DNA of 64,000 nucleotides, taken from Chitinophagales bacterium. GTDB taxonomy: Bacteria; Bacteroidota; Bacteroidia; Chitinophagales; BACL12. The stretch lies in assembly GCA_044227505.1 (NCBI GenBank), contig JBGAWP010000004.1, positions 17,122 through 81,121 of the forward strand. The letters run 5' to 3'. A program made the translations under genes and the position numbers. The first letter of the stretch is position 1; each line of letters opens with the position of its first letter. This document shows positions 28,504 to 58,711 of the stretch, in pieces. The notes beneath the pieces are model-generated. The model was given only the letters and a program-made list of their open reading frames with translations. It had not been told where the DNA came from and did not search any database.

Positions 28504-28543
28504 AGGAAAAAGGAGAGAGGAAAAAGGAGAGAGGAGAAAGGAG
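28504..28543 (+). repeat. Purine heptamer tract (AGGAAAA AGGAGAG AGGAAAA AGGAGAG AGGAGAA AGGAG)
   Basis: The 7-nt period is read directly from the sequence. Confidence 0.9.
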
Positions 28544-28647
28544 TTTAAATTTCTTGCGAAATTTTTGTTGAAGTCCGTTAGTGAGATCCTCGCAAAGAGC
28601 GAGAGCGTCACTATCTCCTATGAGAAAATCTTTTCAAATCGTTTGTT

Positions 28648-28757
28648 TTCCTATGTCCCATTTCCCATGTCCTATGTCTGTCCTATGTCCTATGTCTTGT
28701 GTCCTATTTCCTATGTCTTATGTCCTATTTCCTATGTCTTATTTCCTATTTCCTCTC
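28648..28757 (+). repeat. Pyrimidine heptamer tract, about 15 units of (T/G)TCCTAT / GTCTTAT
   Basis: TTCCTATGTCCCATTTCCCATGTCCTATGTC...TTCCTATTTCCTCTC. The 7-nt period is read directly. It overlaps the last four codons and the stop of bshA. Confidence 0.9.
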
Positions 28758-29879
28758 TTGGGCAAGCACTTTTTTATAATACGCCTCATACTGCGGAAGT
28801 ATATTTTCCAGTGAAAACTTATTCGCCTGCATTATTGCATTTTTTTTGAATTGTTTTAAAGTTTCTTCATCCTTTAAAATGAGCATTGCATTTTTTGCCA
28901 TGTCTTCCACATCACCAACATTACTTAAATATCCAGTTACACCTTGAATATTTATTTCGGGGATTCCGCCGGTATTTGTAGAAATAACCGGTACTTCACA
29001 TGCCATTGCTTCTAATGCTGCAAGTCCGAAACTTTCTGTTTCTGAAGGGAGAATAAAGAGATCTGCAATTGCGAGTAATTCTTCAACGGCTTCTTGTTTT
29101 CCAAGAAAATAAACATCATCCTCCATACAAACCTGACGCGTTAGTTTTTCTACGTTTTGCCGTTCAGGACCGTCACCTATTAATAATAATTTTGCAGGAA
29201 TTTGTTCTTTAATTCTGCAAAAAACCTGTACAACATCTTCCACTCTTTTTACTTTTCTGAAATTGGAAGTGTGTACAATTATTTTCTCTCCGTTTTTTGC
29301 AATTACCTGTCGGAAATGTTCTTTGTCTAGTTTTTTAAATCTGCTGAAATCTATAAAATTTGGAATTACTTCAATATCTTTTACTATATCAAAATTTGTA
29401 TAAGTATCATCTTTCAAACTTTGAGATACTGAGGTAATGCCGTCGCTTTGATTAATGGAAAATGTAACAACCGGAATAAAGGTCTCATCCTTGCCCACCA
29501 AAGTAATATCGGTTCCGTGTAAAGTTGTGATGAACGGAAGATGATAATTTTTTTCTTTCAGAATTTGTTTTGCGATATATGCAGCACTTGCGTGCGGAAT
29601 GGCATAATGCACGTGAAGCAGATCGAGTTTCTCAAAAAGTGCAACATCCACTATTTTACTGGCAAGTGCAGTTTCATAGGGCGGATATTCAAAAAGGGGA
29701 TAATTGCTGAAGTTCACTTCATGAAAAAAGATGTTCTCGTGGAAAGAATCCAGGCGAAATGGTTGTTTATAGGTGATAAAATGCACTTTGTAGCCCTTAT
29801 CAGCTAAGGCTTTCCCGAGTTCCGTGGCTACAACCCCGCTTCCTCCGTAGGTTGGGTAACAAACAATTCCGATTTTCAT
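28746..29879 (-). CDS. bshA: N-acetyl-alpha-D-glucosaminyl L-malate synthase (bacillithiol biosynthesis glycosyltransferase)
   Basis: N-terminal MKIGIVCYPTYGGSGVVATELGKALA..GH.VH and a GT4 E-x7-E region (ESFGLAALEAMA). 377 aa. Confidence 0.82.
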   Translation of the reverse strand: MKIGIVCYPTYGGSGVVATELGKALADKGYKVHFITYKQPFRLDSFHENIFFHEVNFSNYPLFEYPPYETALASKIVDVALFEKLDLLHVHYAIPHASAAYIAKQILKEKNYHLPFITTLHGTDITLVGKDETFIPVVTFSINQSDGITSVSQSLKDDTYTNFDIVKDIEVIPNFIDFSRFKKLDKEHFRQVIAKNGEKIIVHTSNFRKVKRVEDVVQVFCRIKEQIPAKLLLIGDGPERQNVEKLTRQVCMEDDVYFLGKQEAVEELLAIADLFILPSETESFGLAALEAMACEVPVISTNTGGIPEINIQGVTGYLSNVGDVEDMAKNAMLILKDEETLKQFKKNAIMQANKFSLENILPQYEAYYKKVLAQERK

Positions 29880-29973
29880 AGTGTGAAGGTAATGGGTTTA
29901 ATAATGGTGTGGAACTGATTTTTGTTCCATAAAACGCGGATTTTTGAAATTAACAATTTATGCAGGCGATTGT

Positions 29974-30021
29974 CACAAAGAAAAACTTAGTGACTGCTTA
30001 GTGTCTTTGTGTCTTCGTGGC
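29974..30021 (+). repeat. Short octamer-word tract with an inverted repeat (CACAAAGA ... CTTAGTGA CTG CTTAGTGT CTTTGTGT CTTCGTGG)
   Basis: CACAAAGA (29974-81) is complementary to TCTTTGTG (30004-11). The CTTAGTG word is duplicated directly. Confidence 0.6.
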
Positions 30022-30045
30022 AAAAATACATTTTTGATAGAGCCA

Positions 30046-30297
30046 CTAATCAATTCCAGTTTTAAGTTTAAATCCATCTCGAATTAATTCATAACCAAAT
30101 GTAATAACCAGAAATTGGATAAAACAATTAATAACAAATAAAATGATAGTAAACACTAAATGTATATTAGCTGGATCTATAAATATAAATATTGGAAATC
30201 CGATCGTATATCTGGCAAATTGAAAAATGTAACATACAAAGGCAAGGAAAAAAACATAACTCCAAAATAATATTGTGCGATTTATTTTCATTTTCAA
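30046..30297 (-). CDS. Small hypothetical membrane protein
   Basis: 83 aa with two or three hydrophobic helices. It overlaps the stop of the upstream GH3 gene by 4 nt (coupled). Confidence 0.35.
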   Translation of the reverse strand: MKMKINRTILFWSYVFFLAFVCYIFQFARYTIGFPIFIFIDPANIHLVFTIILFVINCFIQFLVITFGYELIRDGFKLKTGID

Positions 30298-33254
30298 TCA
30301 CTTGCAGCACCACCAACAACACCCTGACTCAAAAAACTTTCGTAGATCACATCCATGATCTTATTTCTTATTCCTTCTGAACTCAATTTATTGGGATCAG
30401 CAGTTGGTTGAACGCGGTTTGAAAGAAAAATATATAAGAGGTCATATTTAGGATCGGCCCAAACACAAATTCCTGTGAAGCCTTGATGACCGAAAGTTTC
30501 GGCAGAAGCGTACTGACTGCATGGAGAAGTATTGATCAAATCCGGTTTATCAAAACCCATTCCACGGCGTGAAATACTGCTTTGTTTTTTTGTCCAGGCG
30601 TTAATGGTTTGTTCGGGTAAATATTGTTGTCCTCCGTAATTTCCGCCGTTCAGCAACATTTGATATAAAATAGCAAGGTCCTCAGCATTGGAAAATAATC
30701 CGGCATGGCCTTCCACGCCACCCATCATTGCAGCGCCCATGTCGTGTACATATCCCTGAACAGTTTGATAACGGAAATAATTATCATTTTCTGTTGGAAC
30801 AATGCGCGACTTATCAAAATTATTTAATGGATTAAAACATGTTGTCTGCATTCCAAGCGGAGCATAAAACATGGAATTCACAAATTTATCTAAAGGTACT
30901 CCGGCAATTTTTTCTGCTATTCTTTTTGAGATATATAATCCGAGGTCACTATATACATAATTATTTTTTTCCTTGAGCGGTTTATTTTGAATTAAACTCC
31001 AGATAGTATCCTTATAATCGTCGCGCATATACAATCCATCTGCAACCAAAGTTGTAAATCCTTTTATCGGGGACTGGTTATAATATGCAGGATCAATAGT
31101 TCCATCTTCCTTTAATGTTTTTTTATAAAAAGGGATCCAGGCAACCAATCCGGATTGATGTGTGAGTATATCACTCAATTTTAAATTAGCAATTTCAGTT
31201 CCTTTGGTTTCCGGTAAATAATCAACTACGGTTTTTGAAAGATCGAGTAAACTATCGCTGTATAATTTCATCAACATGGATACTGTTGCAGTAGTTTTTG
31301 TTACGGAAGCAAGATCATAAATACTGCTGAGTTCCACCGGCGTTTTTTTGTCGTATTTATAATAGCCGTATGCTTTATCCCAAATTACTTTTCCGTTTTT
31401 TGCAACCAATACCTGACAGCCCGGAGCAGCCTGAACAGCAATACATGCTTTTGCTATGGAATCAATTTTATTTAAATAACGAATATCCATTCCTACCTCT
31501 TGCGGAATTGTATATTTTAATCTGTTTAGTGAACCTGTTTGAACACCATCGTTCGCTAAAAAAATTCCTGAACCAACAGGTAATTTCCCATCAAAAGGAA
31601 TTGCCCCAAACATAGCCATAGCAGTAGCTTGTTGTGTGTAGGCATCATCGTCGTAGGCAACAATATGATATTGAGCTGTCTCAAATTTTTCGAGTGAATA
31701 AGGTGTGCCGAAAACCACTACTGCAGTTTTGGTTGCCAAAGAAAGTTTCCAGATCAGATTTTCCGTATTTGCAGTAACGCCATATTCACTTGTTCGTGCG
31801 CGTTTCATATCATGAACCCCAACTACAACCACTTCATATTTTTTCAGTTTTTCATACATCTGAATAAAAGTGGCGGGATCGGCGTCCTTACTGATCTGAT
31901 AATTATCTATTTTAATATATTTTCCTAAATATTCCTGAAAGGTTGATTTTTTTCCGTTGCCAACACTTAATGATGCAATAAAAACGGTATCAATTTTTTT
32001 AAAAGGAATAAGACTATCGATACCGTTTGCAAGTGTTATACTATTTTCTGTAATTTTTCTTTTTATTAAAGTTGCTTTATCGGAATTAAGATCGAAAGTT
32101 ACATTTTGTAATTTAACCGGTTTGTATTTATTCAGTCCGACGAATGCTTTTGCCTTTAAAATTCTGCGCACACTTTCATCGAGTCTTTCCTCTGTAATAG
32201 TACCAATTTCTATTGCTTTTTTTATGGATTCGTAAGCAAGTGCAACATTTTCGCTGAACAATAAAAAATCGTTTCCTGCTAAAAATGCTTTTACTTCCAA
32301 TTCTCCTGTTTCATAATAAGCACTAACTCCTTTCATATTTAATGCATCGCTGAAAACCAATCCGCGGAAACCAAGTGTATCGCGTAAAAGATCTGTCCCT
32401 ATTTTTTTTGAAATGGAAGATGCATGATTATTTACACTATCCAGAGAAGGAATATATAAATGCGCCAACATGATGGAACCTAATCCTTCATTCATCAAAA
32501 TTTTAAATGGAAATAATTCCAGGGTATCGAGATGCGTATAAGAATGATTAATGATCGGCAATGTAACATGACTGTCTGTAGATACATCTCCGTGACCCGG
32601 AAAATGTTTTCCGCAGGCAAGAATATTATTATCCTGCAGTGCATTCATGTACATCAAACCCTTTAAAGCAACATTATATTTATTCTCCCCAAAAGACCTG
32701 TCGCCAATAACCGGGTTTTGAGGGTTATTATTTACATCGATAACCGGAGCAAAATTGCAGTGTACTCCTAACCTTTTAAGTTGTTGGGCAATTGCGGTTC
32801 CAACCTCATAAACAGTGGAATCGTTGCTCATGGCACCCCAGGTGAGCTGACGTTGGAAAGAGATCACAGAATCCAGTCGCATAGCAGGTCCCCATTCGGC
32901 ATCCATAGCGATCATTAAGGGGATTTGGGACATGCTTTGATAGTTATTGGTCAGTTTCACCTGCCGCATGGGCCCTCCCTGCATAAAAATGAGTCCGCCT
33001 AACTGATATTTTTTGATGAGTGTCTCAATTTCTTTCACATGGGCAGCATCCTTATTGGAATATGCCGCAACCATAAAAAGCTGCCCTATTTTTTGATCAA
33101 GGGTCATTACCTGCATGAGGGAATCCACCCAAGGGTAATTCTGATCGTAGTAAGCTAGTTTCTTATCTGTATCAATTTCAGGCGGTTGTACACGGAAAGA
33201 TGCCGATGCAAAACCGAAGGTAAATATTAATATGAAAAAAAATCTTGAATACAA
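30294..33254 (-). CDS. Glycoside hydrolase family 3 (NagZ-like beta-N-acetylhexosaminidase) fused to a serine beta-lactamase/PBP-like hydrolase
   Basis: GH3 motifs (KHFPGHGD, GLVFSDAL) in the N-terminal half. S-x-x-K motif (ASVTK) and class C beta-lactamase-like features in the C-terminal half. Signal peptide. Confidence 0.88.
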   Translation of the reverse strand: MYSRFFFILIFTFGFASASFRVQPPEIDTDKKLAYYDQNYPWVDSLMQVMTLDQKIGQLFMVAAYSNKDAAHVKEIETLIKKYQLGGLIFMQGGPMRQVKLTNNYQSMSQIPLMIAMDAEWGPAMRLDSVISFQRQLTWGAMSNDSTVYEVGTAIAQQLKRLGVHCNFAPVIDVNNNPQNPVIGDRSFGENKYNVALKGLMYMNALQDNNILACGKHFPGHGDVSTDSHVTLPIINHSYTHLDTLELFPFKILMNEGLGSIMLAHLYIPSLDSVNNHASSISKKIGTDLLRDTLGFRGLVFSDALNMKGVSAYYETGELEVKAFLAGNDFLLFSENVALAYESIKKAIEIGTITEERLDESVRRILKAKAFVGLNKYKPVKLQNVTFDLNSDKATLIKRKITENSITLANGIDSLIPFKKIDTVFIASLSVGNGKKSTFQEYLGKYIKIDNYQISKDADPATFIQMYEKLKKYEVVVVGVHDMKRARTSEYGVTANTENLIWKLSLATKTAVVVFGTPYSLEKFETAQYHIVAYDDDAYTQQATAMAMFGAIPFDGKLPVGSGIFLANDGVQTGSLNRLKYTIPQEVGMDIRYLNKIDSIAKACIAVQAAPGCQVLVAKNGKVIWDKAYGYYKYDKKTPVELSSIYDLASVTKTTATVSMLMKLYSDSLLDLSKTVVDYLPETKGTEIANLKLSDILTHQSGLVAWIPFYKKTLKEDGTIDPAYYNQSPIKGFTTLVADGLYMRDDYKDTIWSLIQNKPLKEKNNYVYSDLGLYISKRIAEKIAGVPLDKFVNSMFYAPLGMQTTCFNPLNNFDKSRIVPTENDNYFRYQTVQGYVHDMGAAMMGGVEGHAGLFSNAEDLAILYQMLLNGGNYGGQQYLPEQTINAWTKKQSSISRRGMGFDKPDLINTSPCSQYASAETFGHQGFTGICVWADPKYDLLYIFLSNRVQPTADPNKLSSEGIRNKIMDVIYESFLSQGVVGGAASD

Positions 33255-33467
33255 TCGTGTCGTTTTTAACTATGACTTTAAACTATTTTGCAAAAGTAAT
33301 TCGAACTTTATGCCAACAGTATCTATTTACACATAAACTGTTGTTATCATCACTAAATTTAAGACAATAGTTCAAAGGAATTATCTTTATTTGCAAAGAA
33401 ACGTTGAACTTGTTTTTTTTGATACAACTTTGCAGAAATAATTTAGTTCAGAGAGGCTGAGGCATAC

Positions 33468-35291
33468 ATGGCAGACATTATTCATTTATTACCGGATTCG
33501 ATAGCAAATCAAATAGCCGCGGGGGAAGTTATTCAGCGACCTGCCTCGGCAGTAAAAGAATTGCTGGAAAACGCCGTGGATGCAGGTGCTACGGAGATCA
33601 AGCTGATGGTGAAAGATGCAGGAAAAACACTTATTCAGGTGATTGATAACGGCTGCGGAATGAGTGTAACGGATGCCAGAATGTGTTTTGAACGCCACGC
33701 AACATCTAAGATCAGAACCGCTGAAGACATTTTTAAGATCAAAACAAAGGGTTTTAGAGGGGAAGCGATGGCAAGTATTGCCGCAATTGCCCAGGTAGAG
33801 CTCAAAACCAGACTTCAAGAGGAGGAGATTGGAACCCGAATAGTGATAGAAGGGTCTGATATTGTTAGTCAGGAACAGGTGCAATGTGCAGGCGGAAGTA
33901 ATATTTCAGTGAAAAACCTGTTTTACAATGTTCCGGCCAGGAGAAATTTTTTAAAATCAAATACGGTTGAATTAAAACATATTATTGACGAATTTGAACG
34001 TGTGGTTTTAGCGCATCCCGGTATTTTTTTCAGTTTGCAGAATAACGGGATAGAATTATTTCATTTGAAACCGGGAAACTATCGCCAACGCGTAATTCAT
34101 TTATTCGGCAGTAATTACAATGAAAAATTGGTACCGATAGAAGAAAATACTTCGGTTGCAAATATTCGCGGATTTATCGGGAAACCCGATTCTGCAAAAA
34201 AAACCAAAGGGGAGCAATTCTTTTTTGTAAATAATCGCTTTATCAGAAGTCCTTATTTACACCACGCGGTTATGAGTGTATATAATGATCTTATTGCAGA
34301 AGGAAATTATCCTTTATATACAATTTATATCGATATTGATCCGTCTCGTATTGACGTGAATGTGCATCCCACAAAACAAGAAATAAAATTTGAGGACGAA
34401 CGGATAATTTACACCTTTATTCAAGCCGGTGTGCGCCACGCATTAGCGCAATACAGCGTTACACCAACACTGGATTTTACTTTAGATCCCACCTTTGCCA
34501 ATCTCCCGAGTTTTTATAAAAAACAACCGCAGGATACCGTTTCTAAAAATCTTTCTTTTAAGACCTACGAAAGCAGGATGAATGAAAATCCTACTTTTGA
34601 GAAAACGAATTTCCCTGATTTTCAACCGAAAGATTTTGATCGGGAATTAACAGCTGTTGAAAATAAGGATATAGAAAATTCCGGTGGGAATGAAGAAAGA
34701 ATATTCGGATATAATGCAGAAACAACTCCTTCCTTTCAGATTCACAATCAATATATCGTAGCTCAAATAAAATCTGGGTTTATTGTTATTGATCAGCAGG
34801 CTGCGCATGAAAGGATCTTATATGAAAAATATCTTGCGCAATTGCACAATAAAAAACACCATACGCAACAACAATTATTTCCACAGAGTTTAACTTTATC
34901 GGGAGCAGATGCGGCAATATTACTTGCGTTGTTGCAGGATATAAATAATCTTGGATTTGATATTCAACCATTTGGCAAAGAAACTTTCGTAATACACGGA
35001 GTTCCGGTGGAATTTGAAAATGGCAATGAACAAAAAGTAATTGAGGATCTTATTGAACAATTCAAAGAGGATAAGGCCGCATTAAAATTGCACAAACACG
35101 AAGTGATAGCAAAATCGCTTGCAAGGTCAAATTCCATCAAACGCGGGCAAAAATTGGATGAGCGCGGAATGCGCCATTTGACCGATCAGTTGTTTGCGTG
35201 TGCAACACCATTTGTTTCTCCATTCGGAACATTAACCTTTACAACATTTTCGCTCGACGAATTAGCAAAACAATTTCAGAAAAACAATTAA
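33468..35291 (+). CDS. mutL: DNA mismatch repair endonuclease MutL
   Basis: N-terminal GHKL ATPase motifs (IAAGEVIQRPASAVKELLENAVDAGA, DNGCGM) and a C-terminal dimerisation domain. Confidence 0.93.
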   Translation: MADIIHLLPDSIANQIAAGEVIQRPASAVKELLENAVDAGATEIKLMVKDAGKTLIQVIDNGCGMSVTDARMCFERHATSKIRTAEDIFKIKTKGFRGEAMASIAAIAQVELKTRLQEEEIGTRIVIEGSDIVSQEQVQCAGGSNISVKNLFYNVPARRNFLKSNTVELKHIIDEFERVVLAHPGIFFSLQNNGIELFHLKPGNYRQRVIHLFGSNYNEKLVPIEENTSVANIRGFIGKPDSAKKTKGEQFFFVNNRFIRSPYLHHAVMSVYNDLIAEGNYPLYTIYIDIDPSRIDVNVHPTKQEIKFEDERIIYTFIQAGVRHALAQYSVTPTLDFTLDPTFANLPSFYKKQPQDTVSKNLSFKTYESRMNENPTFEKTNFPDFQPKDFDRELTAVENKDIENSGGNEERIFGYNAETTPSFQIHNQYIVAQIKSGFIVIDQQAAHERILYEKYLAQLHNKKHHTQQQLFPQSLTLSGADAAILLALLQDINNLGFDIQPFGKETFVIHGVPVEFENGNEQKVIEDLIEQFKEDKAALKLHKHEVIAKSLARSNSIKRGQKLDERGMRHLTDQLFACATPFVSPFGTLTFTTFSLDELAKQFQKNN

Positions 35292-35298
35292 AATATAG

Positions 35299-36887: not shown

Positions 36888-37984
36888 AGTGGTGGCATAA
36901 AATAATTTTGTTTTTTACAATTCTCAATTTGATCTTCCTGTTGGGAGCTTATATGGCAATGTATGTAAGCCCGGAAAGTTTTTGGCCTGTTGCATTTATC
37001 GGATTGGGTTATATTCCCGTTTTGGTGGTTTATCTGTTTTTTATGCTCCTCTGGTTTTTTATGCACAGAAAGGTATTTTATGTTTTGCTCGTATTTTTAA
37101 TTTTAGGTTTTAATGCGCACAGAAGTTATTTTGCGATCGGGTCGCTAAAAAAGACAAATACAGAAGGAAAAAAAACATATAGTATTTTACAATATAATGT
37201 TCAGGGATTTGATGCTTATAATAAAGATGGTAAATACCTCAACAGAGAAGAAATAATTTCCAATATTGCAGAAGCAAAAGCGGATATAATATGTCTGGAA
37301 GAATTTAATACCTACCATGATCATCCGACTGAAAAGAGCAATTTAGATATGGTTATTGCCGCAACAGGATTAAACCATAAGTATTATTATAAGGCATATG
37401 AAAATTCGAAATCGACCAGAAGTTTCGGATTGATAATACTTTCTCGTTTTCCTGTTATTAGTTCCGGTCATCTGGAGTATTTATCACTCAGCAGATTAAA
37501 TTCCACGATATATGCTGACCTGCTGATAGAAAATGATACCATAAGAGTATTTTGCTCGCATTTACAGTCTACTCAATTAAGTCATTACGATCTCGAATTT
37601 ATTGAAGCGAGCAATGAAGCGCAAACTGATTTTGATGCTGATAGAATAACGAACAAATTAAAAATGAGTTACGCTTTGAGGGCGCAGGAGGCAGATACAG
37701 TTTCCACTTACTTAAAAAAATCGCCTCATCCTATTATTTCCTGTGGTGATTTTAATGATACACCTGTTTCTTATACCTATCGCAAAATGAGTGAGGATCT
37801 TCAGGATGCCTTTTTGCAAAAAGGATTTGGCATTGGAGCTACCTATGCACCATTTCCATTTATAAGAATAGATTATCAGTTATTTGATGAGGATAAATTT
37901 GATATTGTTGATTTTAAAAGGATCAAAGAGAGATCAAGCGATCATTATCCTTGTGTTACTACGTTTGTGATGAATGAGAAATGA
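36884..37984 (+). CDS. Endonuclease/exonuclease/phosphatase (EEP) family membrane-anchored protein
   Basis: N-terminal transmembrane helices. EEP motifs (ICLEEF, ..GDFND.., SDHYP). Confidence 0.8.
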   Translation: MKWWHKIILFFTILNLIFLLGAYMAMYVSPESFWPVAFIGLGYIPVLVVYLFFMLLWFFMHRKVFYVLLVFLILGFNAHRSYFAIGSLKKTNTEGKKTYSILQYNVQGFDAYNKDGKYLNREEIISNIAEAKADIICLEEFNTYHDHPTEKSNLDMVIAATGLNHKYYYKAYENSKSTRSFGLIILSRFPVISSGHLEYLSLSRLNSTIYADLLIENDTIRVFCSHLQSTQLSHYDLEFIEASNEAQTDFDADRITNKLKMSYALRAQEADTVSTYLKKSPHPIISCGDFNDTPVSYTYRKMSEDLQDAFLQKGFGIGATYAPFPFIRIDYQLFDEDKFDIVDFKRIKERSSDHYPCVTTFVMNEK

Positions 37985-38396
37985 GTTATGAATAATGAGA
38001 TTGATCCTCGATAGCCGGATGTATTTACTCCTGCCCAATGAATATTGACTCCTGACAAACCTCCACGGACACACGATTCACGAATAAATGAGTTATGAGT
38101 GATGAGTGTGATTCTTTATGGCCGGAATGACTCACTCCTGACTAATGACTATTGAAATTGGGTGAGTAGTGAGTGCTGAGTGGTGAGATTGATCCTCGAT
38201 AGCCGGATGTTTTTACTCCTGACTATTGACTATTGACGGAAAGAGGTGAGATTGATCCTCAATAGCCGGATGTATTTACTCCTGACTAATAACTATTGAA
38301 GGAAAGTGGTGAGATTTATCCTTGAAAGCCGGATGTTTTTACTCCTGATTAATGACAATTGACTCCTGACAACCCTCCACGCCTCACGATTTCCTA
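37966..38396 (+). repeat. Array of five composite heptamer-tract elements: (A/G)TGAG(T)-tract, core ATTGATCCTCGATAGCCGGATGTATTTACTCCTGAC, then TAATGAC/TATTGAC-tract
   Basis: The core occurs at about 38000, 38111 (diverged), 38188, 38251 and 38313. The array starts within the last codons of the EEP gene and ends 14 nt before the cysS ATG. Confidence 0.9.
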
Positions 38397-45353: not shown

Positions 45354-46306
45354 ATAACAATTTATACATAGAACACAGTAATATTCCATCGCAGGAGACC
45401 GTAAAAAATAGTGTTTTGCGCTCACTCATTTATTTTGATATTTTTAATTATCCACTTACAGCAAATGAGTTAGTTCAGTTTAGTTCTGTTAAATTGCATG
45501 ATATACAGAGTATTACTCAGGCATTGGATGATCTCACACAACATCTCCTCATTTTTAAATTTGGAGATTATTACTCCCTTAAAAACGACCCTTCACAAAT
45601 TGAACGCAGAAAGAACGGCAATAATACTGCGGCAGAAATTTTACCAAAAGCACTGAAGCGTTCTAAATTTATTTATAAATTTCCCTTTGTAAGAAGCGTG
45701 AATATTTCGGGATCCTTGTCTAAAAATTATTTTGACGAAAGCACCGATTTCGATTTTTTCATTATAGCAGAAGCAAATCGTATTTGGTTGTGTAGATTGT
45801 TGTTGACCTTTTACAAAAAAATATTCCTGTTCAACTCCCGCAAATATTTCTGCATCAATTATTATATCGACACCACCGATCTGCTGATACCGGATAAGAA
45901 TTTATTTTCAGCGACCGAGATCATCACATTAAAAAATCAGACTGGAGAAGCTGTGTATAAAGATTTTATGGAAACCAATACCTGGGTGCAGGAATATTTT
46001 CCAAATTATTTTCCTGACTATTTATTTATGGAGGAAAAGAAAATGCCTGGGCTGAAGAAATTTTTAGAAAGTTTATTTTCTGGCAAGATTGGCAATTATT
46101 TTGATGACCTTTCATTTAAAATTACTACCGGATTTTTGAAAAGGAAGTACAGACATTTAAAAAAGGAAGAATTCAATGTGAATTTGCGCACGAAAAAAAA
46201 TGCATCCAAACATCATCCTCAGGGATTTCAGTTTAAGGTTTTGAATGCTTTTGAAGAGAAATGCCGAGATTTTGACGGAAAACATCATGTTGGAATAGGG
46301 ACTTAG
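45350..46306 (+). CDS. Hypothetical protein with a minimal Pol-beta-type nucleotidyltransferase motif
   Basis: The segment ISGSLSKNYFDESTDFDFFII fits hG[GS]-x(9-13)-DhDh. ATGA overlap with the upstream gene. The stop codon is provided by the TAGGAAR heptamer tract. Confidence 0.5.
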   Translation: MNNNLYIEHSNIPSQETVKNSVLRSLIYFDIFNYPLTANELVQFSSVKLHDIQSITQALDDLTQHLLIFKFGDYYSLKNDPSQIERRKNGNNTAAEILPKALKRSKFIYKFPFVRSVNISGSLSKNYFDESTDFDFFIIAEANRIWLCRLLLTFYKKIFLFNSRKYFCINYYIDTTDLLIPDKNLFSATEIITLKNQTGEAVYKDFMETNTWVQEYFPNYFPDYLFMEEKKMPGLKKFLESLFSGKIGNYFDDLSFKITTGFLKRKYRHLKKEEFNVNLRTKKNASKHHPQGFQFKVLNAFEEKCRDFDGKHHVGIGT

Positions 46307-46338
46307 GAAATAGGAAGTAGGAAATAGGAAGTAGGAAT
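46292..46338 (+). repeat. Heptamer tract (GGAATAG GGACTTAG GAAATAG GAAGTAG GAAATAG GAAGTAG GAATAC)
   Basis: The 7-nt period is read directly. Its words (ATAGGAA) are the reverse complement of the TTCCTAT words in the 28648..28757 tract. Confidence 0.9.
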
Positions 46339-46364: not shown

Positions 46365-46386
46365 CCTGCCTGACGCGGTCAGCAGG
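46365..46386 (+). other. GC-rich hairpin (CCTGc-CTGAC-GCG-GTCAG-CAGG) in the spacer between the operon and the third radical SAM gene
   Basis: 9 bp with one bulge and no following T-run. It lies within an unusually GC-rich ~60-nt patch (GACGCGGAT GACGCTGAT words). Confidence 0.5.
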
Positions 46387-46526
46387 CAGACGCGGATGAC
46401 GCTGATTGGGCGGAAAAAAAAGGATAAAAATGATGCGGGAATCGGGACACTGGATACATAACTTAGGACATAAGATCTATGGCTTAGAAAAGATTGAGGA
46501 TATAAATTTTCGTAGAAAATTTATCA

Positions 46527-46569
46527 CTCACGATTCACGCCTCACGATTCACGAATGACGATTGACGAC
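46527..46569 (+). repeat. Heptamer tract (TCACGAT TCACGCC TCACGAT TCACGAA TGACGAT TGACGAC) abutting the start codon of radical SAM paralogue 3
   Basis: The 7-nt period is read directly. It ends 1 nt before the ATG at 46571. Confidence 0.9.
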
Positions 46570-51052: not shown

Positions 51053-51436
51053 ATGAAAAAAGTGATTTACACTCCAAACGCACCTGCCCCGATAGGTCCA
51101 TATTCTCAGGCTATTGAAGCAAACGGTTTTGTTTATGTTTCAGGACAAATTGCCATAGATCCAACTACAAATGAACTTTACACCGGCGCGGATATAAAAG
51201 TGGAAACAACCCAGGTGATGGAAAATTTGAAAGCAATAATTACGGCTGCAGATTGTGAAATGAAAGATGTTGTGAAGTGCACCATTTTTTTGAGAGATAT
51301 GGCTGATTTTGCTGAGGTAAATTCCGTTTATGCCGAATATTTTCCGGAATATGCACCGGCGCGTGAAACGGTTGCTGTTGTGGGGCTGCCTAAAAATGCG
51401 AGGGTGGAGATCAGTGCTGTGGTGGGGAAGAGGTGA
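51053..51436 (+). CDS. ridA: RidA family (YjgF/UK114) reactive-intermediate deaminase
   Basis: MKKVIYTPNAPAPIGPYSQAI.ANGFVYVSGQ start and a C-terminal PARETVAV..LPKNARVEI. I chose the internal ATG. The stop TGA is the first word of the GGTGAGT tract. Confidence 0.88.
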   Translation: MKKVIYTPNAPAPIGPYSQAIEANGFVYVSGQIAIDPTTNELYTGADIKVETTQVMENLKAIITAADCEMKDVVKCTIFLRDMADFAEVNSVYAEYFPEYAPARETVAVVGLPKNARVEISAVVGKR

Positions 51437-51896
51437 GTGGTGAAGGGTGAGTGGTGAGAATGCTTCTCGTAAGCCGAATATTTTTACACCTGACTAATGA
51501 CTCTTGACGGTGAATGGTGAGTAGTGAGTGGTGAGTGTGATCCCGATAGCCGGAAGCATTTATACCTGACCAATGACTCTTGACAAATGAGTAATGAGTT
51601 ATGAGTAATGAGTTTGAATCTGGTAAGCCGAATGGTTTTACTCCTGACGGTGAATGGTGAGTAGTGAATGGTGAGTGTGATCCCGATAGCCGAATGGTTT
51701 TACTCCTGACTAATGACTCTTGACTAATGAATAATGAGTTATGAGTAATGAGTTTGAACCTGGTAAGCCGAATGGTTTTACACCTGACTAATGACTCTTG
51801 ATGGTGAATGGTGAGTAGTGAGTGGTGAGAATGCTTCTCGTAAGCTGAATATTTTTACACCTGACTAATGACTCTTGACCAATGACTAATAACTCC
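51431..51896 (+). repeat. Array of six tandem composite heptamer-tract units (64-95 nt each) in the order A-B-C-B'-C'-A'
   Basis: Units are at 51431-51507, 51508-51583, 51584-51647, 51648-51723, 51724-51800 and 51801-51895. Each has a GGTGAGT or AATGAGT tract, then a core ending ..(T)AAGCCGAAT..TTTTAC(A/T)CCTGAC, then a TAATGAC TCTTGAC tract. Confidence 0.92.
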
Positions 51897-51965
51897 CGTC
51901 ATGCTAATGATAAATGCCGGTAAACAAGTTCACCGGCATTGTACATATAAACATAATCACAACAG

Positions 51966-52529
51966 TTATTTTGCATCTTTTGCCATTTCCTGGCAATGTT
52001 CTGCATGTGTCAGATGTTCGCGTAATTTTGGTAAGGTATTGTTTGCTAAAGTTTTAACCTCGGCATTTTCACAATCTTCCGCTGCTTTTTCAAAACTGTC
52101 AATGGCATCTTTATGATACTTTACCATTACGTCAGAATATTCCTTATCAAAGTCAGCGCCTTCTTTTTTGGAAAGATTTTCATACTTTCTTTGTGCTTCG
52201 TTTTCGGCATAGGTTGGAATGGATATACCCAATTTAGTAGCCAATGCAATTACTTCGGCATGCAGTTTTTTATGATCGTTAATAAACATGGTAGCCATGT
52301 CTTTTGTTTCCTGCATTGTTGCAGATGTTGCAGCCAGCTCAGACAAGTAAATGCCATCGAGATTCGTTTCAGCTGCAGCTCTTAAAAATTCTGCATCGGG
52401 ACCTTTATCATCTCGTTTTTCTTCTTTTGTTAAACCGTCGTCATTCATGTCGGACGTTTTTGAATTGTTACAAGAAATAATTACCAGTGCAAACACAGGT
52501 AACGCAAGAATTAAATTTTTCAATTTCAT
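51966..52529 (-). CDS. DUF4142-like (ferritin-like four-helix) lipoprotein
   Basis: Lipobox (VIISC). Two repeats of a ...A....A...(F)..DH.K....L motif. The family assignment is from memory. Confidence 0.7.
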   Translation of the reverse strand: MKLKNLILALPVFALVIISCNNSKTSDMNDDGLTKEEKRDDKGPDAEFLRAAAETNLDGIYLSELAATSATMQETKDMATMFINDHKKLHAEVIALATKLGISIPTYAENEAQRKYENLSKKEGADFDKEYSDVMVKYHKDAIDSFEKAAEDCENAEVKTLANNTLPKLREHLTHAEHCQEMAKDAK

Positions 52530-52559
52530 AACAGTAGTTTTTGTTTTTTTTTAAATAAA

Positions 52560-53154: not shown

Positions 53155-54078
53155 TCAATTAGTCATTGAAATTTTTGTATTTTCTTCCTTTCCAATTTTG
53201 GTCTTTTTCCCCGGATAATTCAACACATATATCCCCAATAAAATAAACAACATCCCGATCAAGTGATGGAAAAATAATTGTTCCCCATCTAAAAATCCTA
53301 TTATGATAGCCACAACAGGAATGAGATAGGTAACTAATGAGCCGAAAATGGCATCTGTGCGCTGCACTAATGCATAATATCCTATGGATGCTACCACAGT
53401 GCCGAAAAAGGAAAGTGCAATTATGCTGGATAAACTGATTCGAAAGAATTCATCGTTTGCATGCGACATAAAACCAGTGCTGAATAAATAAATAATTGCG
53501 GGAATACCGATAAAAGAAAATCCAACGGCTCCTAAAACCAGTGGATGTGCGGTTTGCAAATATCTTTTTACAAGATTTGCACTAGTTGCATAACTAATGG
53601 TAGCAACAAAAATGGGCAATGCAAATAATAAATTACTTTGGCCGCTTGCAGAATGATCAAATACTACCAAAACCACTGCACCCGCTAAAGCTATTATCAA
53701 TCCAAGTAATTTATTTTTTTCGAATTTCATTCCGAAAAGCAATACGCCAAGCACGAATGTAAATACCGGTGTTAGAGAATTTAATACACCGGTAATGCCG
53801 CTTTCAATATGCGTTTGTGAAAAAGTAAAACAAAAGGCAGGTAATCCGCTTCCGAAAAATCCAACCATGCAATAATATTTTATTTCACTTCTTTTTATTT
53901 TTTTGTAGTGAATGAAAATAAATGGAAGGGTTGCAATAAAAGAAAAAGAAATACGAATTGCAGCAACCTGATCCCAGCTAAAGGTTTTTAATCCATATTT
54001 CATAAAAATGAACGAAAATCCCCAAATCATGCTGAGAACGATGAGGAGGAGCCAGTTTTGGGTGGAATATTTTTGCAT
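53155..54078 (-). CDS. EamA/DMT-superfamily transporter
   Basis: Ten predicted transmembrane helices in two EamA-like halves. 307 aa. Confidence 0.85.
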   Translation of the reverse strand: MQKYSTQNWLLLIVLSMIWGFSFIFMKYGLKTFSWDQVAAIRISFSFIATLPFIFIHYKKIKRSEIKYYCMVGFFGSGLPAFCFTFSQTHIESGITGVLNSLTPVFTFVLGVLLFGMKFEKNKLLGLIIALAGAVVLVVFDHSASGQSNLLFALPIFVATISYATSANLVKRYLQTAHPLVLGAVGFSFIGIPAIIYLFSTGFMSHANDEFFRISLSSIIALSFFGTVVASIGYYALVQRTDAIFGSLVTYLIPVVAIIIGFLDGEQLFFHHLIGMLFILLGIYVLNYPGKKTKIGKEENTKISMTN

Positions 54079-54092
54079 TGGTGATTTTCTTC

Positions 54093-54640
54093 GATGAGTA
54101 ATGAGTTATGAGTAATGAGTTTAGCCCTGCACGGATCATACTCTTATTTCTACATGTTACATTTTTCTTTCCTGTACGACTAAAAATTTCAATCCAACGA
54201 TGGTCCCACTCATTACTCATTTAGTGAATGGTGAGTAGTGAGTGGTGAGCTTATTCCTGCATACATCAAACAATATTTACTGATTTTTACATTTTACTTT
54301 CCTGAATGAGTAATGAGTTATGAGTTATGAGTTTTAGCCCTGCTCGCATTATACTTTTATTTCTTCACATTATATTTTACTTTCCTGAAGGACTGAAATT
54401 ATCAATCCATCGTTTGACCCACTCATAACTCATTATTCATAACTCTTTGAATGAGTAATGAGTTTTAGCCCTGCTCGCATTATACTCTTATTTCTTCACA
54501 TTACATTTTCCTCTCCTGAAGGAATAAAATTACCAATCCTTCGAATAACCCTCTTCATTTTCCTTACATCACCTTCCTTCCTTTTTTCCCTTAGACCCTT
54601 CCCTTCGATTCTTCGAATCTTCTCCCTTCGATTCTTTGAT
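54093..54640 (+). repeat. Array of four elements, including ~130-140-nt MITE-like units whose terminal inverted repeats are ATGAGTAATGAG heptamer tracts
   Basis: Unit 54093-54220 runs GATGAGTAATGAGTTATGAGTAATGAG ... CACTCATTACTCAT. Unit 54305-54447 runs AATGAGTAATGAGTTATGAGTTATGAG ... CACTCATAACTCATTATTCATAACTC. The shared core TTTAGCCCTGC.CG.AT.ATACT.TTATTTCT.CACAT...ATTTT.CTTTCCTG occurs three times. Confidence 0.9.
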
Positions 54641-54644
54641 TGCC

Positions 54645-55637
54645 TCACCCATTCAATTCTTGCCAAATAACATCCTTCAATTTATCCAAATTCTTTCCTG
54701 TATGTGAGGAAATAAAGATCGGATCTAATTTTTTGGGTAATTCTTTTTTAAGCATTTTTTCCAATTCTGCATCTATAAGATCGCATTTTGTAATAGCGAG
54801 AATTATTTTTTTGGATAATAATTCTTTATTGTATTTTTTTAATTCGCTGAGCAGAATTTTATAGGTTGTTTTGATATCCTTATCCTCACAACTGATTAAA
54901 AATAACAAAGCGGAATTGCGTTCAATATGTTTTAAAAACCGAATTCCCAATCCTTTGCCTTCGCTAGCACCTTCAATTATTCCCGGAATATCCGCCATAA
55001 TAAATGATTTATGATCGCGGTAGGAAACAATACCCAAATTCGGCACCAGGGTGGTGAATGCGTAATCGGCAATTTCTGGTTTTGCAGCGGATAATACGGA
55101 TAATAAGGTAGATTTTCCGGCATTCGGGAAACCTACAAGTCCAACATCGGCTAAAACCTTTAATTCCAAAATTTTCCAGGCTTCAATTCCGGGTTCACCG
55201 GGTTGAGCATATTGAGGGGTTTGTTTTGTAGGGGATTTGAAATTATTATTTCCCAATCCGCCTCTGCCACCCGGAATCCAGATTATTTCCTGACCATCGT
55301 CTACAATTTCTGCCTCGATAGCACCGGTTTCAAAATCTTTGGCAACGGTTCCGAGTGGAACTTCCAATATAATATCCTCTCCTTCCTTTCCGGTTCTTAG
55401 TTGTCCAACCCCATAATCCCCTGATCTTGCAATTACGTGTTTGCGATATTTTAGATGTAAAAGCGTCCATAGTTGGGCATTACCCCTTAATATAATATGT
55501 CCTCCTCTACCCCCGTCACCGCCATCAGGCCCACCTTTCATGGTGTTTTTATCGCGGTGAAAGTGCACGCTTCCGGCGCCACCGTTACCGCTTTTGCAAT
55601 GTATTTTTACGTAATCAACAAAGTTTTGTTTTTCCAT
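54645..55637 (-). CDS. obgE: GTPase ObgE/CgtA
   Basis: N-terminal Obg fold with Gly-rich segments ([24 protein letters not shown]). G1 motif [10 protein letters not shown]3 motif DIPG. Confidence 0.93.
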
Positions 55638-55671
55638 TTTTGAGCAGGTTTTCCTGCTGTTTCCCTCTTAT

Positions 55672-56271
55672 TTAGCTATCTGAATGTTTTGACGCCACAG
55701 TATTTACCGCAGCTTTCAAAGCGTTAAAAATTGTATCAATACTACCAACTCCCTCAATCTCCATCAAAAGATCCTGATCTTTATAATATTCCGCCACAGG
55801 TTCGGTTTTGAGACGATATTCCTGAACACGTTTGCGTATGGTATCCACGTCCATATCATCTGTTCTTCCACTGGTCAATCCTCTGTTAAGTATGCGTTGC
55901 GTAAGTTCTTCCTCTTCCACAACAAGACTTAAAACACAACTTACACTCGTTCCTTTATCGAGCAACATGCTATCCAACGCTACTGCCTGCGCTTTAGTTC
56001 TGGGAAAACCATCGAAGATAATTCCGTGTTTTTGTTTGTTTCTGGCTTCTTCCACTGCTCCTCCCAACATTCCGATAACCACTTCATCAGGAACAAGTTT
56101 GCCTTCATCCATGAACTTTTTTGCTTCCATTCCCAGGCTGGTTCCCTCACTGATCTGATTGCGCAACAGGTCGCCGGTAGAGATATGCAACAAATTAAAA
56201 TGTTCCTTCAACTTCTCTGCCTGTGTGCCTTTCCCGCTTCCCGGAGGGCCAAATAGTATAATGTTTGTCAT
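55672..56271 (-). CDS. adk: Adenylate kinase
   Basis: P-loop GPPGSGKGTQ, then LHISTGDLLR and GFPRT. Confidence 0.93.
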   Translation of the reverse strand: MTNIILFGPPGSGKGTQAEKLKEHFNLLHISTGDLLRNQISEGTSLGMEAKKFMDEGKLVPDEVVIGMLGGAVEEARNKQKHGIIFDGFPRTKAQAVALDSMLLDKGTSVSCVLSLVVEEEELTQRILNRGLTSGRTDDMDVDTIRKRVQEYRLKTEPVAEYYKDQDLLMEIEGVGSIDTIFNALKAAVNTVASKHSDS

Positions 56272-56409
56272 TGAATAGTTTATTAAAAAGTATGCAAAGA
56301 TAACAGGCTTAGGCGGATTTGCCTTGATCTGACCCCCATATTTACACGTATATACATTGAACCTTTATGGTGTTAAAATGATTATTATTATTAAACTTAC
56401 CTTTGGGAT

Positions 56410-56706
56410 ATGACTTTATTGGAAAAGATTATGGAAACATTGCTGAAAAATAAACAATATCTCGCTTCTAAATATGGAGTAAGTAGTATCGGTTTATTCG
56501 GGGAATCGGTTACAGAAGATTTCCATTCAGGCAGTGAAATTGATATCATTGTAGACTTCAAAAAACCAATCGGTCTTGAAATAGTAGACCTCGGCGACGA
56601 ACTCGAAAAACTTCTAGGTCACAAAGTGGACCTTGTTTCAAAAAACGGTTTGGAAAAAGATTATTACAAAGTGTTTAGAAAGGAAATTTTGTATGTTGGA
56701 AAATGA
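56410..56706 (+). CDS. Minimal nucleotidyltransferase (MNT-type, antitoxin-like) domain protein
   Basis: 98 aa with GLFGESV...SGSEIDIIVDF (G-S ... D-x-D). Confidence 0.72.
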   Translation: MTLLEKIMETLLKNKQYLASKYGVSSIGLFGESVTEDFHSGSEIDIIVDFKKPIGLEIVDLGDELEKLLGHKVDLVSKNGLEKDYYKVFRKEILYVGK

Positions 56707-56712
56707 TGGCCA

Positions 56713-56877
56713 TTTGTTAATTTGGTAATCTGGTAATTTGTTAATTTGTTAATCCGTTAAGGCCGGCTGTTCCATTATCAATTATCAATTGTCAATTGTC
56801 AATTTTTCCCGGCTGTTCATCGGTACATTGGTACATCTTTTTTCATCGGTACATTATCATTATCCTATCATCATTCC
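56713..56877 (+). repeat. Composite tract region with different words: (TTTGTTAA/TCTGGTAA) x6, (ATTATCA/ATTGTCA) x4, (ATCGGTAC/ATTGGTAC), (ATTATC/ATCATC). Tracts are joined by the connectors GGCCGGCTGTTCC and TCCCGGCTGTTC.
   Basis: Periods of 7-8 nt are read directly. The right end encodes the last ~9 residues and the stop of the minus-strand gene 56843..57964. Confidence 0.88.
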
Positions 56878-57964
56878 TCTCCGGATTTCCTCTCCCGTCT
56901 TCATTGCTTGTGCTAAAAACAATACTACCATCTGGTGCATTAATAATATTTCTCAAGCGACCATAAATTTGTGGGAATAATTGTTTTTCATTTTTATTAA
57001 TGAGTACATGATTTTTGTCGACATCAAATTGTACCAATCTTTCTCCTCTTAAACAGGCAAATATTATACTGCCAACTTCCGTGTTCTGTTCATTAAAATC
57101 ATCCACATAAATAATTCCACCGGGCGCCCAGGTATCTTCGCCGCTGTGTGCAAATGGGAGAATTGTTCCGCTTGAGGTATTACCTCCAATTACTTTTGGC
57201 CAGCCGTAATTTTTTCCCTTTTCAATAATATTTACTTCATCGTGACAACACCATCCATTCAATTCACCGCTTGGTCCGTGTTCAGTTGCAAACATGGTTC
57301 CATCAGGAGTCCAGCATAATCCCTGCACATTGCGATGACCATAACTCCAGATATAATTTTTAAATGGATTATCTGCAGGAATATTTCCCTCTCTGTCCAT
57401 TCGCAATATTTTTCCCGCATTACTTGTAAGATCTTGTGCGGAATTAGGATCGCGTGCGTCACCGGTTCCAACGTATAAATATCCATCAGGCCCAAAACGC
57501 AATATTCCCCCATCGTGAAAAAACTTTTTTGGAATAGAATCCAACAGGATTTTATTTTCTGTTAAAATTTCATTTTCAAATTTCAACTGTACTACCCGGT
57601 TTCCTGAAGGCATTGTTTCATAAATAAAAATATAGTGATTTTTTTCAAAATCGGGATCCACAACCAAACCCAATAAACCACCTTCGGCTTTTGCACTAAT
57701 GTCGCGGGTCATCAACAATTTAACTTCCTTGGTTTTAAGATCTACCACTGAGATACGACCCGGACGTTCATTAAATACCAACCTGCCATCGGGTAGAAAG
57801 TCCATTCCCCAGGGCACCTCCAAATCCTGCGCCAACACCTCTGGATCCTTTGGCAACAGCACCTTCTGAGCATTAGGATTGGGTTTATTTTGCGAACTGC
57901 AATTAAACAGCAGCGTTACAGAGATACAAAGCAGGTAAACACTTAAATTTTTCATCATCATCAA
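56843..57964 (-). CDS. PQQ-dependent sugar dehydrogenase (soluble glucose/sorbosone dehydrogenase family) lipoprotein
   Basis: Lipobox (LFNCS). Motifs GLLGLVVDPDF and YGHRNVQGL.W.PDG.....EHGP. Six-bladed propeller length (373 aa). Confidence 0.86.
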   Translation of the reverse strand: MMMMKNLSVYLLCISVTLLFNCSSQNKPNPNAQKVLLPKDPEVLAQDLEVPWGMDFLPDGRLVFNERPGRISVVDLKTKEVKLLMTRDISAKAEGGLLGLVVDPDFEKNHYIFIYETMPSGNRVVQLKFENEILTENKILLDSIPKKFFHDGGILRFGPDGYLYVGTGDARDPNSAQDLTSNAGKILRMDREGNIPADNPFKNYIWSYGHRNVQGLCWTPDGTMFATEHGPSGELNGWCCHDEVNIIEKGKNYGWPKVIGGNTSSGTILPFAHSGEDTWAPGGIIYVDDFNEQNTEVGSIIFACLRGERLVQFDVDKNHVLINKNEKQLFPQIYGRLRNIINAPDGSIVFSTSNEDGRGNPERNDDRIMIMYR

Positions 57965-58024
57965 AATTAAAAATAGAAAACGGTTTGTTAAATTACATAC
58001 ATTTTATAACTTTATAGAATAATT

Positions 58025-58444
58025 ATGAAATTATTCAACATCATATTGGGATCAGTTATAGTATTTTTTATTGTAATGTTTCTGCGTTGCGAAAAGGTTA
58101 CAGAAATTACTGAACTTACGAAAAATACTGAAAGTTTACAAATTGTATTTTACAACGATTCCGTTCCAAATAAAATAGTAGAGATCACCGATAAAAATGA
58201 AATAAAAAAATTCGGGAAATTTATTTCCGACAAAGACACACCATTATACAAATGCAGTTATGATGGACAGATCATTTTTGTATTAAATAATGATGTTGCA
58301 ATTGGCAAAAAAAATACCATCACCATGGAATTTAATCTGCAGCCTGATTGCACACATGTTGCTTATATGTATGCGGAAGGATTGCGGACAAAAGAATTGA
58401 GTGAGGAGGGGGTGGAGTATTTGAAAAATGTGAATGGTGAGTAG
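58025..58444 (+). CDS. Hypothetical membrane-anchored/secreted protein
   Basis: N-terminal hydrophobic helix. 139 aa with no recognisable family. The stop TAG lies in a GGTGAGTAGTCAGTAG tract. Confidence 0.4.
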   Translation: MKLFNIILGSVIVFFIVMFLRCEKVTEITELTKNTESLQIVFYNDSVPNKIVEITDKNEIKKFGKFISDKDTPLYKCSYDGQIIFVLNNDVAIGKKNTITMEFNLQPDCTHVAYMYAEGLRTKELSEEGVEYLKNVNGE

Positions 58445-58711
58445 TCAGTAGTAAGGAAGCTCCGATTGGAACTTTAATCGCGATTCAACAAATGAGTAAT
58501 GAATAGATTCTCGTTAACCTGATAATTATACTCCTCCTTAATGATTCCTGACAGTAAGGTGAGTGGTGAATGGTTAGTGGTGAGTAAATCCTCGACGACC
58601 TGATTATACTACTCCTGACTAATGACTTCTGACAATTTACAAATGATAATTCACAATTTAAAAGTTTGTTACCGCTAAGCCGGATTCACGTCTCACGATT
58701 CACGACCCTCC
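58429..58711 (+). repeat. Composite heptamer-tract region with three units and a terminal TCACGTC TCACGAT TCACGAC tract
   Basis: Runs GTGAATGGTGAGTAGTCAGTAGTAAG..., then AAATGAGTAATGAATAG...TACTCCTCCTTAATGATTCCTGAC, then GGTGAGTGGTGAATGGTTAGTGGTGAG...CTACTCCTGACTAATGACTTCTGAC. It overlaps both flanking CDS ends. Confidence 0.88.

Follow-up and report, generated by a model that had tools for sequence, protein, structure and literature searches.

Many genes in the genome of an uncultured Chitinophagales bacterium end in or directly beside tandem arrays of 7-nt units, most of which carry a stop triplet on the strand of the gene that they follow. These arrays came to attention in a 64-kb window (C88:17122-81121; coordinates below are those of the window unless a contig is named), where many short arrays of period 7 are found between 28.5 and 58.7 kb by Tandem Repeats Finder (TRF). 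An initial annotation of the same DNA had proposed that the arrays might act as translational insulators closing all three reading frames, or that they might simply overwrite and re-terminate the ends of genes. We consider it probable that the tracts constitute a polar population of heptamer repeats, of the type called short tandemly repeated repetitive (STRR) sequences or long simple sequence repeats (SSRs), in which the all-frame stops are a by-product of composition and the turnover of arrays rewrites short C-terminal tails.

The assembly comprises 4.2 Mb in 143 contigs with 36% GC. TRF was used to call tandem arrays throughout this genome and returned 1261 rows of period 7, compared with 210 of period 6 and 389 of period 8, and period 7 is thus over-represented relative to its neighbors. 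These rows were merged into 957 tracts, of which 741 are located between genes, 159 have a partial overlap with a gene, and 57 fall inside open reading frames (ORFs). More than 100 heptamer unit types are present, the commonest being GGTGAGT, AATGAGT, ACATAGG, AATTGAC, AAAGGAG, and AATCGTG. The gene set was a proxy of 3272 ORFs, chosen by codon log-odds with greedy removal of overlaps and covering 86% of the genome, in which the positions of stops are independent of the choice of start. A tract was taken to abut a gene when the stop codon lies within it or when it begins no more than 5 nt past the stop. For the named gene ends in the window, the sequence was inspected directly, the genes were translated, and their names were checked with Pfam. 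A second species of the same genus, syntenic with the window at 24.4-63 kb, served for comparison, and the orthologue comparison was widened to the entire 768-kb contig of that species (382 pairs, median identity 92%).

Approximately 7% of genes end in or directly beside stop-carrying 7-base repeats. The stop codon lies within a tract in 102 genes, and in a further 138 the tract begins within 5 nt after the stop. It is simple arithmetic that three copies of a stop-bearing 7-mer close every frame, and the excess of sense-strand stops at 3' ends, for which a genome-wide count had been suggested, is indeed present. Among 238 tracts within 5 nt of a 3' end, all three sense frames are closed in 158 and all three antisense frames in 11. 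An open tract would merely lengthen an ORF, and the subset of genes whose native stop lies ahead of the tract was used as a control for this bias of ORF definition; all-frame closure is found there in 78 cases on the sense strand and in 6 on the antisense strand. The pattern is also evident when no tracts are called, given that stop triplets recur at both +7 and +14 past the gene's own stop in 69 genes, compared with 6-33 genes at spacings of 5, 6, 8, or 9. Only 5 of the 957 tracts are read through near a C-terminus, and only 30 tracts lie within 5 nt of a 5' end.

This strong excess, the near absence of arrays that are read through, and the regular recurrence of stop triplets are the observations that favor selected insulators. 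Under that explanation, arrays would be kept at 3' ends because their all-frame stops end the progress of read-through or frameshifted ribosomes before downstream sequence is reached. The initial annotation named seven genes in the window as ending in such tracts. Six of them do end in heptamer tracts, whereas the seventh ends in words of 8 nt. The arrays and stops concerned are the following.

28649..28754, minus strand: CATAGGA/GGAAATA heptamer array, purine-rich on the minus strand (TRF period 7, 15.6 copies).
28746-28748, minus strand: stop codon of bshA (..AQERK-TAG), overlapped by the GGAAATA/CATAGGA array, which encodes the final ERK and the stop (sequence, translation).
37966..37999, plus strand: (A/G)TGAGnn array covering the EEP stop TGA at 37982-37984 (..VMNEK; sequence, translation).
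46291..46337, plus strand: GGAATAG/TAGGAAA array at the end of the NTase-like gene (TRF, sequence).
51422..51458, plus strand: GGTGAGT/GGTGAAG array at the end of ridA (TRF, sequence, translation).
58430..58458, plus strand: degenerate GTGAATG/GTGAGTA/GTCAGTA array, unscored by TRF (sequence).
58683..58705, minus strand: CGTGAAT/CGTGAGA array at the end of hpt (TRF, sequence, translation).
56818..56854, minus strand: ATGTACC(G/A) octamer words, not a heptamer tract (TRF period 8, sequence).

The way in which the array meets the gene varies from case to case. The NTase-like gene ends ..GIGT-TAG (46304-46306) with the first TAGGAAA unit, and ridA ends ..VVGKR-TGA (51434-51436) in the first GGTGAGT unit, from which composite units continue to approximately 51896. 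The EEP array likewise opens a series of composite units, which occupy the EEP-cysS spacer as far as 38396. Gene 58025-58444 ends ..NGE-TAG (58442-58444) inside the degenerate array, and the last six residues of hpt, VVNRET, are encoded together with the stop TGA (58686-58688, minus strand) entirely by CGTGAAT-type units. Pfam agrees with the names RidA, phosphoribosyltransferase, GT4, EEP, and GSDH, and each matched domain stops short of the tract-encoded tail.

The seventh gene, which encodes a PQQ-type glucose/sorbosone dehydrogenase (GSDH), ends ..IMIMYR-TGA, with ATG TAC CGA TGA contained in one copy of the 8-nt-family word ATGTACCGATGA, and its GATAATGATAATG has a period of 6. This gene is repeat-terminated but is no heptamer case, and its tail and downstream words are kept in the second species. 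Families with a period of 8 nt at 56712-56753, 56818-56837, and 54603-54641 (ATTTGTTA, ATGTACCG, and AATCGAAG, respectively) act like the heptamers at gene ends, which indicates that the period is not strictly 7; period 8 is the third commonest TRF period in the genome, behind periods 7 and 9. The array of the last of these families is the following.

54603..54641, minus strand: AATCGAAG octamer array, purine-rich on the minus strand (TRF period 8, sequence).

It starts 3 nt past the stop (54645-54647) of gene 54645-55637, and it is also present in the second species, where the stop is TAA instead of TGA and the C-terminus is identical.

The evidence that separates stops from orientation comes from the base composition of the arrays. 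On the sense strand, the 240 abutting tracts are 68% purine (A 37, G 32.5, T 21, and C 9.6%), with purines above 50% in 222 of them and below 50% in 17. Tracts that hold no stop on either strand, which are composed of AGGAGAG, GGACACG, GGGCAGT, and similar units, are oriented alike, by 21:0 when they abut a stop and by 35:3 when those at 6-30 nt and the read-through classes are included. When the plus strand is considered, purine tracts lie at the left of spacers and pyrimidine tracts at the right in all four gene configurations, and even in divergent spacers purine tracts outnumber pyrimidine tracts by 11:1 at the left end, with the reverse, 0:10, at the right end. The rule is therefore that the purine strand points out of the nearest gene, at its 5' end as well as at its 3' end. 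Within 100 nt of 5' ends, 104 tracts are purine-outward and 32 are pyrimidine-outward, and the stops there fall on the antisense strand, where they are unable to end that gene's translation. The same polarity is seen in the second species, by 34:1 at 3' ends. A general purine skew of spacer DNA can be dismissed as the cause, because spacer DNA outside tandem repeats has no purine polarity.

Three features of the window illustrate this rule.

28504..28543, plus strand: AGGAGAA/AGGAGAG array, stop-free on both strands (TRF, sequence).
54094..54333, plus strand: three (A/G)TGAGT arrays, purine-rich on the plus strand (TRF, sequence).
46526..46569, plus strand: ACTCACG/ATTCACG array, open on the sense strand (TRF, sequence).

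The first, a stop-free and purine-outward example, reads away from the 5' end of a yqeY-like gene (27993-28448, minus strand). The three arrays of the second line have the minus-strand gene 53155-54078 beside them, point outward from its 5' end, and carry their stops on its antisense strand; they illustrate a polarity that is independent of the type of gene end. The third covers the position at which the ORF of the next gene starts (46562) and the bases just ahead of it; it corresponds to the stop-side arrays but faces inward.

The stop content of the units also conforms to what their composition predicts. A stop is carried on the purine strand by 65% of 106 unit types, compared with 61 +/- 3.4% after permutation of the letters within each unit. 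Moreover, stops are equally frequent beside 5' and 3' ends: all three frames are closed in 62% of purine-outward tracts at 0-5 nt and in approximately 53% at 6-100 nt of 3' ends, and in approximately 60% at 6-100 nt of 5' ends. Of the 239 affected genes, 113 have a convergent neighbor and thus lack a co-directional gene downstream, 104 have a co-directional neighbor at least 20 nt away, and only 3 lie in tight operon junctions. The GGGAATC repeats of Xanthomonas share the geometry (Rehm et al. 2015, PMC4692102), and we read their unit as holding no stop triplet. The orientation of the arrays follows the purine strand and not the stops, which are a by-product of composition and fixed polarity, and no insulator function is necessary to explain where they are placed. 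That the arrays were selected as all-frame insulators is highly improbable, and their stops appear to be permissive instead.

We propose that the approximately 950 heptanucleotide arrays, many of which form composite spacer modules together with conserved cores, would occupy dispensable intergenic DNA with a fixed polarity, such that the purine-rich, G-rich, and C-poor strand reads out from the nearest gene. A purine-rich 7-mer with one or two T residues would have a chance of about 60% of containing TAA, TAG, or TGA, and with this chance and with 7 being coprime to 3, most arrays would be closed outward in all frames and open inward. An array may then lie flush with the stop, supply the stop, or enter the gene by a few codons, in each case changing the protein by only 1-7 residues. 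Turnover, in which units are gained or lost or one unit family is swapped for another, would subsequently rewrite the short C-terminal tails. The close abutment of arrays and stops would reflect the absence of constrained sequence between the stop codon and the terminator.

Some features of the spacers bear on this last point. A terminator-like hairpin with a T-run follows 29% of tract-abutted genes and 33% of tract-free genes, at median distances from the stop of 84 nt and 30 nt, respectively. Because the hairpins are about as frequent but further out, the arrays sit between the stop codon and the terminator, and the idea that they replace terminators was rejected. Spacers with abutting arrays are approximately twice as long as others (median 280 nt versus 132 nt).

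Two further observations concern these spacers. A hairpin, AATGCCGGTGAAC..GTTTACCGGCATT, lies at 51905-51965, immediately downstream of the convergent gene 51966-52529; seen from ridA, it is at the distal end of the 466-nt block of arrays that follows that gene. It is probably a terminator shared by the convergent genes, and a related hairpin is present at the equivalent position in the second species. Where the downstream neighbor of a gene is a contig end, 19 of 127 genes (15%) have an abutting array, compared with 7-12% elsewhere in this genome; arrays and composite modules probably break the assembly.

The alternative offered by the initial annotation, in which arrays overwrite and re-terminate gene ends, fared better than the insulators, although its scale is only 1-7 residues. 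The following tails differ between the two species.

bshA: AQERK in this genome; AQGGNRK in the second species.
EEP: VMNEK in this genome; VVNE in the second species, which ends one residue earlier on a TAA in the same array.
NTase-like gene: GIGT in this genome; RIR in the second species.
ridA: VVGKR in this genome; VVGR in the second species, one residue shorter.
hpt: IWRVVNRET in this genome; IWKVRA in the second species.

By comparison, genes without tracts in the syntenic part of the window have C-terminal lengths identical to those of the second species. Across the wider set of orthologues, C-terminal length differs in 13 of 45 pairs (29%) with a tract at the stop in either genome and in 39 of 337 pairs (12%) without one (odds ratio 3.1, p=0.004), and the differences amount to 1-5 residues. 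The tails of bshA are especially variable. Two further orthologues with 97% identity end AQGGEIGYRK and ERG, both in tracts, and there are thus four different tract-encoded tails among orthologues that are at least 97% identical, whereas more distant orthologues without tracts have ordinary short tails. In hpt, 7 residues follow a conserved W/Y, compared with 3-5 residues in 20 relatives, which makes the tail about 2-3 residues longer here.

The arrays themselves change at these positions. The end of ridA carries GGTGAGT units in this genome and GGGCAGT units in the second species, and a second example of such a swap at the same gene end involves TAGGACA and TTCTGGG. In the second species, the NTase-like gene ends in a different purine-rich tract with the spacer core conserved, and the orthologue of gene 58025-58444 has a clean GGTGAGT array at the same place. 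Orthologous gene ends of the two genomes also carry the same unit family in copy numbers that differ by whole units. At the TRF threshold, a tract is found at orthologous gene ends in both genomes in 19 cases, only in the second species in 17, and only in this genome in 9. Turnover of the arrays is fast. Nevertheless, protein length is unchanged in about two thirds of the cases of tract gain or loss, and a block of approximately 350 nt that is present only in the second species starts at the stop codon (TAG there, TGA here) and leaves the protein unaltered. Thus, the predicted difference in C-terminal length between orthologues exists, but it accompanies only a minority of the gains and losses.

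A spacer core of approximately 165 nt (46366-46530, containing ..ACGCGGATGACGCTGATTGGGCGGAAAAAAAAGG..) is near-identical in both species, whereas the stop-side array differs. In the second species, such a core is also located downstream of the orthologue of gene 56410-56706, and a similar GATGACGCGGATTGGGCGGA motif recurs in another spacer, so that the core at 46366-46530 looks like a separate dispersed module. Arrays of the AGGAGAG type are regularly followed by the same core, TTTAAATTTCTTGCGAAATTTT (28530-28560 and several gene ends in both genomes), and array and core therefore behave as one dispersed module.

Several points weigh against the view that the stops are a compositional by-product of polar repeats. 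The gene ends were taken from an ORF proxy and not from a curated annotation. The 5' edges of tracts cluster sharply, between -6 and +8 nt relative to the stop codon's first base, and a purely passive model would expect a broader spread than this pile-up unless a deletion bias clears other 3' DNA. In many cases a unit begins with the gene's own stop codon, or the stop keeps the phase of the unit; TGAcaattgacaatt, TAGgaaatagg, and TGAatcgtgaatcg are examples. By tract count, stop-bearing units make up 67.5%, compared with an expected 57%, although this excess is not independent evidence because a few unit families dominate the count. Finally, a by-product model leaves the cause of the polarity itself unaccounted for.

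The phasing of units on stop codons has another possible origin, which is that arrays at 3' ends are seeded locally by repeated 7-nt duplications across the gene's own stop, with each unit inheriting a stop. This would also fit with the presence of different unit families at the same gene end in congeners, as after ridA, and with the fact that more than 100 unit types have only their period in common. However, the same unit families are found at tens to more than 100 loci, several of them with the same core, as in the AGGAGAG arrays just described, and this recurrence indicates that they are dispersed and are not local products. Arrays beside 5' ends and arrays without stops would likewise go unexplained. 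For these reasons, local seeding is quite improbable.

The sharp clustering of tract starts at the stop codon could instead mean that the position is functional and the stops incidental. Arrays, either alone or with partner arms or cores, would then act on the transcript just past the stop as RNA elements. Possible roles are those of a stem for processing of the RNase III type, protection of the 3' end of the mRNA, pausing, or direction-dependent loading of Rho; in the last case, the C-rich inward strand may be a loading site and the C-poor outward strand may be resistant. Such roles are consistent with a polarity that is set relative to gene borders in every configuration, with the G and C contents of the outward strand given above, and with the presence of a Rho gene in the genome. 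In addition, some composite units fold better on the sense strand by means of G.U pairs, and one unit reaches -22.8 kcal/mol (z=-2.4).

Most of the structural observations are less favorable to RNA elements. Complementarity between stop-abutting arrays and the 350 nt downstream of them does not exceed that to the downstream sequence of other loci (p=0.44). Within a spacer, the outermost purine and pyrimidine arrays match weakly, only slightly better than random pairs do, and most composite units fold no better than shuffled sequences (z -0.3 to -1.4). Hairpin arms were on these grounds rejected as a general explanation, with the single exception noted above for folding. No Rfam family is matched at the gathering score anywhere in the 64-kb window, terminator-like hairpins persist downstream at about their normal rate, and turnover is so high that the unit family at the same gene end can be replaced between congeners. 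On the sequence evidence, directional insulation by Rho was not adopted, although the composition fits and the gene is present, because cyanobacteria, which are not known to have Rho, have been reported with the same geometry. Overall, a function of the arrays as RNA elements at 3' ends seems unlikely.

A related set of arrays surrounds a particular protein family. Above-cut-off matches to PF05635 (23S rRNA intervening-sequence protein) were obtained for nine genes of this genome (C7:3372-3683, C101:8909-9214, C101:11570-11878, C89:8559-8819, and five more). Most of them have 7-8-nt arrays on either side, drawn from some of the same or similar unit families; on the plus strand the left-hand array is rich in purines and the right-hand one in pyrimidines irrespective of the strand on which the gene lies, and this arrangement is a further point in favor of RNA elements. 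Some of these array pairs have complementary arms (GAGGAGTG / TCCACTCC). A complementary partner arm is present around most of the nine genes and in some composite units, but not for stop-abutting arrays as a class. One could imagine that the arrays are the ends of spacer cassettes found across phyla, of which the arms bracketing PF05635 genes would be an instance, and that these insert or act at stop codons and affect the transcript in a direction-dependent manner. If true, transcription would leave a gene freely and RNA entering a gene would be acted upon, and the cassettes, which would routinely take over stop codons, would generally give rise to variation in C-terminal tails. We regard such cassettes as distinctly unlikely.

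Polar heptamer repeats, to return to the reading that we favor, have precedents in other bacteria. Rehm et al. (2015, PMC4692102) described G-rich heptameric SSRs, GGGAATC in Xanthomonas and GGGGA(C/T)T in Nostoc PCC 7120, whose G-rich strand is on the coding side at 0-50 bp from stops, overlaps included, and on the non-coding strand upstream of genes, irrespective of ORF orientation. The arrays described here resemble these repeats in their period of 7, mostly intergenic location, genome-wide dispersal, and occurrence of convergent pairs, and the purine-outward polarity is identical, both in this genome and in the second species. They differ in having more than 100 unit types instead of one, in that most units have G-runs too short for quadruplexes, and in their lineage. 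Most units here are also stop-bearing, unlike those repeats, which is a consequence of an AT-rich genome and of units in which T precedes purines.

Direct repeats of TAACTGA have been reported in Beggiatoaceae, some cyanobacteria, and five Bacteroidetes (MacGregor 2015, PMC4679880). Forward copies give stops in all three frames, and the repeats can overlap ORF ends by up to 18 nt, with 13-14 sets covering the stop of the upstream ORF. Although the TAACTGA repeats are thus similar in being heptamers that stop all frames and overlap ORF ends, they mostly face a nearby downstream start and were discussed as 5' regulatory elements, whereas the association here is with 3' ends and the orientation rule is independent of the type of gene end. 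The arrays cannot be assigned to that family, because the whole genome contains no tandem doublets of TAACTGA and 594 single copies. Both the geometry and the point about all-frame stops are therefore already in print (Rehm et al. 2015, PMC4692102; MacGregor 2015, PMC4679880).

Other repeat systems share particular traits with the arrays, which are 7-nt tandem repeats that are over-represented between genes, numerous in each genome, and variable in copy number. The STRR heptamers of cyanobacteria and the long SSRs of prokaryotes are said to have the same properties, and, as far as we have checked, we know of no description of them that treats stop content or the rewriting of C-termini. Repetitive extragenic palindromic (REP) elements of Escherichia coli are reportedly located within 15 nt of stop codons and would likewise be dispersed intergenic repeats right after stops. 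REP elements are imperfect palindromes that act as hairpins, whereas the stop-abutting arrays here have no specific hairpin partner.

Arrays upstream of genes have a separate consequence. Of the 57 tracts that appear to be coding, 31 fall within the first 10% of an ORF (e.g., C22:62398-62424, C66:79132-79158, and C113:13084-13131). Most of the 57 are pyrimidine-sense arrays ahead of the true start, and since such arrays are open in all frames, the longest-ORF rule extends N-termini through them. For this reason, a role for the arrays as phase-variable coding tracts was rejected. Upstream arrays are a likely source of over-long N-termini in the automatic annotation of such genomes. An array that seems to be truly coding, one of few, is composed of GAGGAGA/AAGGAGA units at 59576-59639, 71% of the way along a 478-aa ORF (59226-60662, minus strand). 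Its translation is a low-complexity stretch rich in E, K, G, and R, and the gain or loss of one 7-nt unit there would shift the frame.

What these findings add to a known class of repeats is another lineage with a larger variety of unit families, together with a clear case in which orientation does not depend on stops. With more than 100 unit families, both stop-bearing and stop-free, following one rule, this genome is a good test set for asking why purine-rich strands always point outward from the gene closest to them. In such genomes, the last 1-7 residues of approximately 3% of proteins (102 genes) are encoded by repeats and vary between close relatives. All-frame stops at the ends of genes look designed, and here they are the result of base composition combined with a period of 7 nt.

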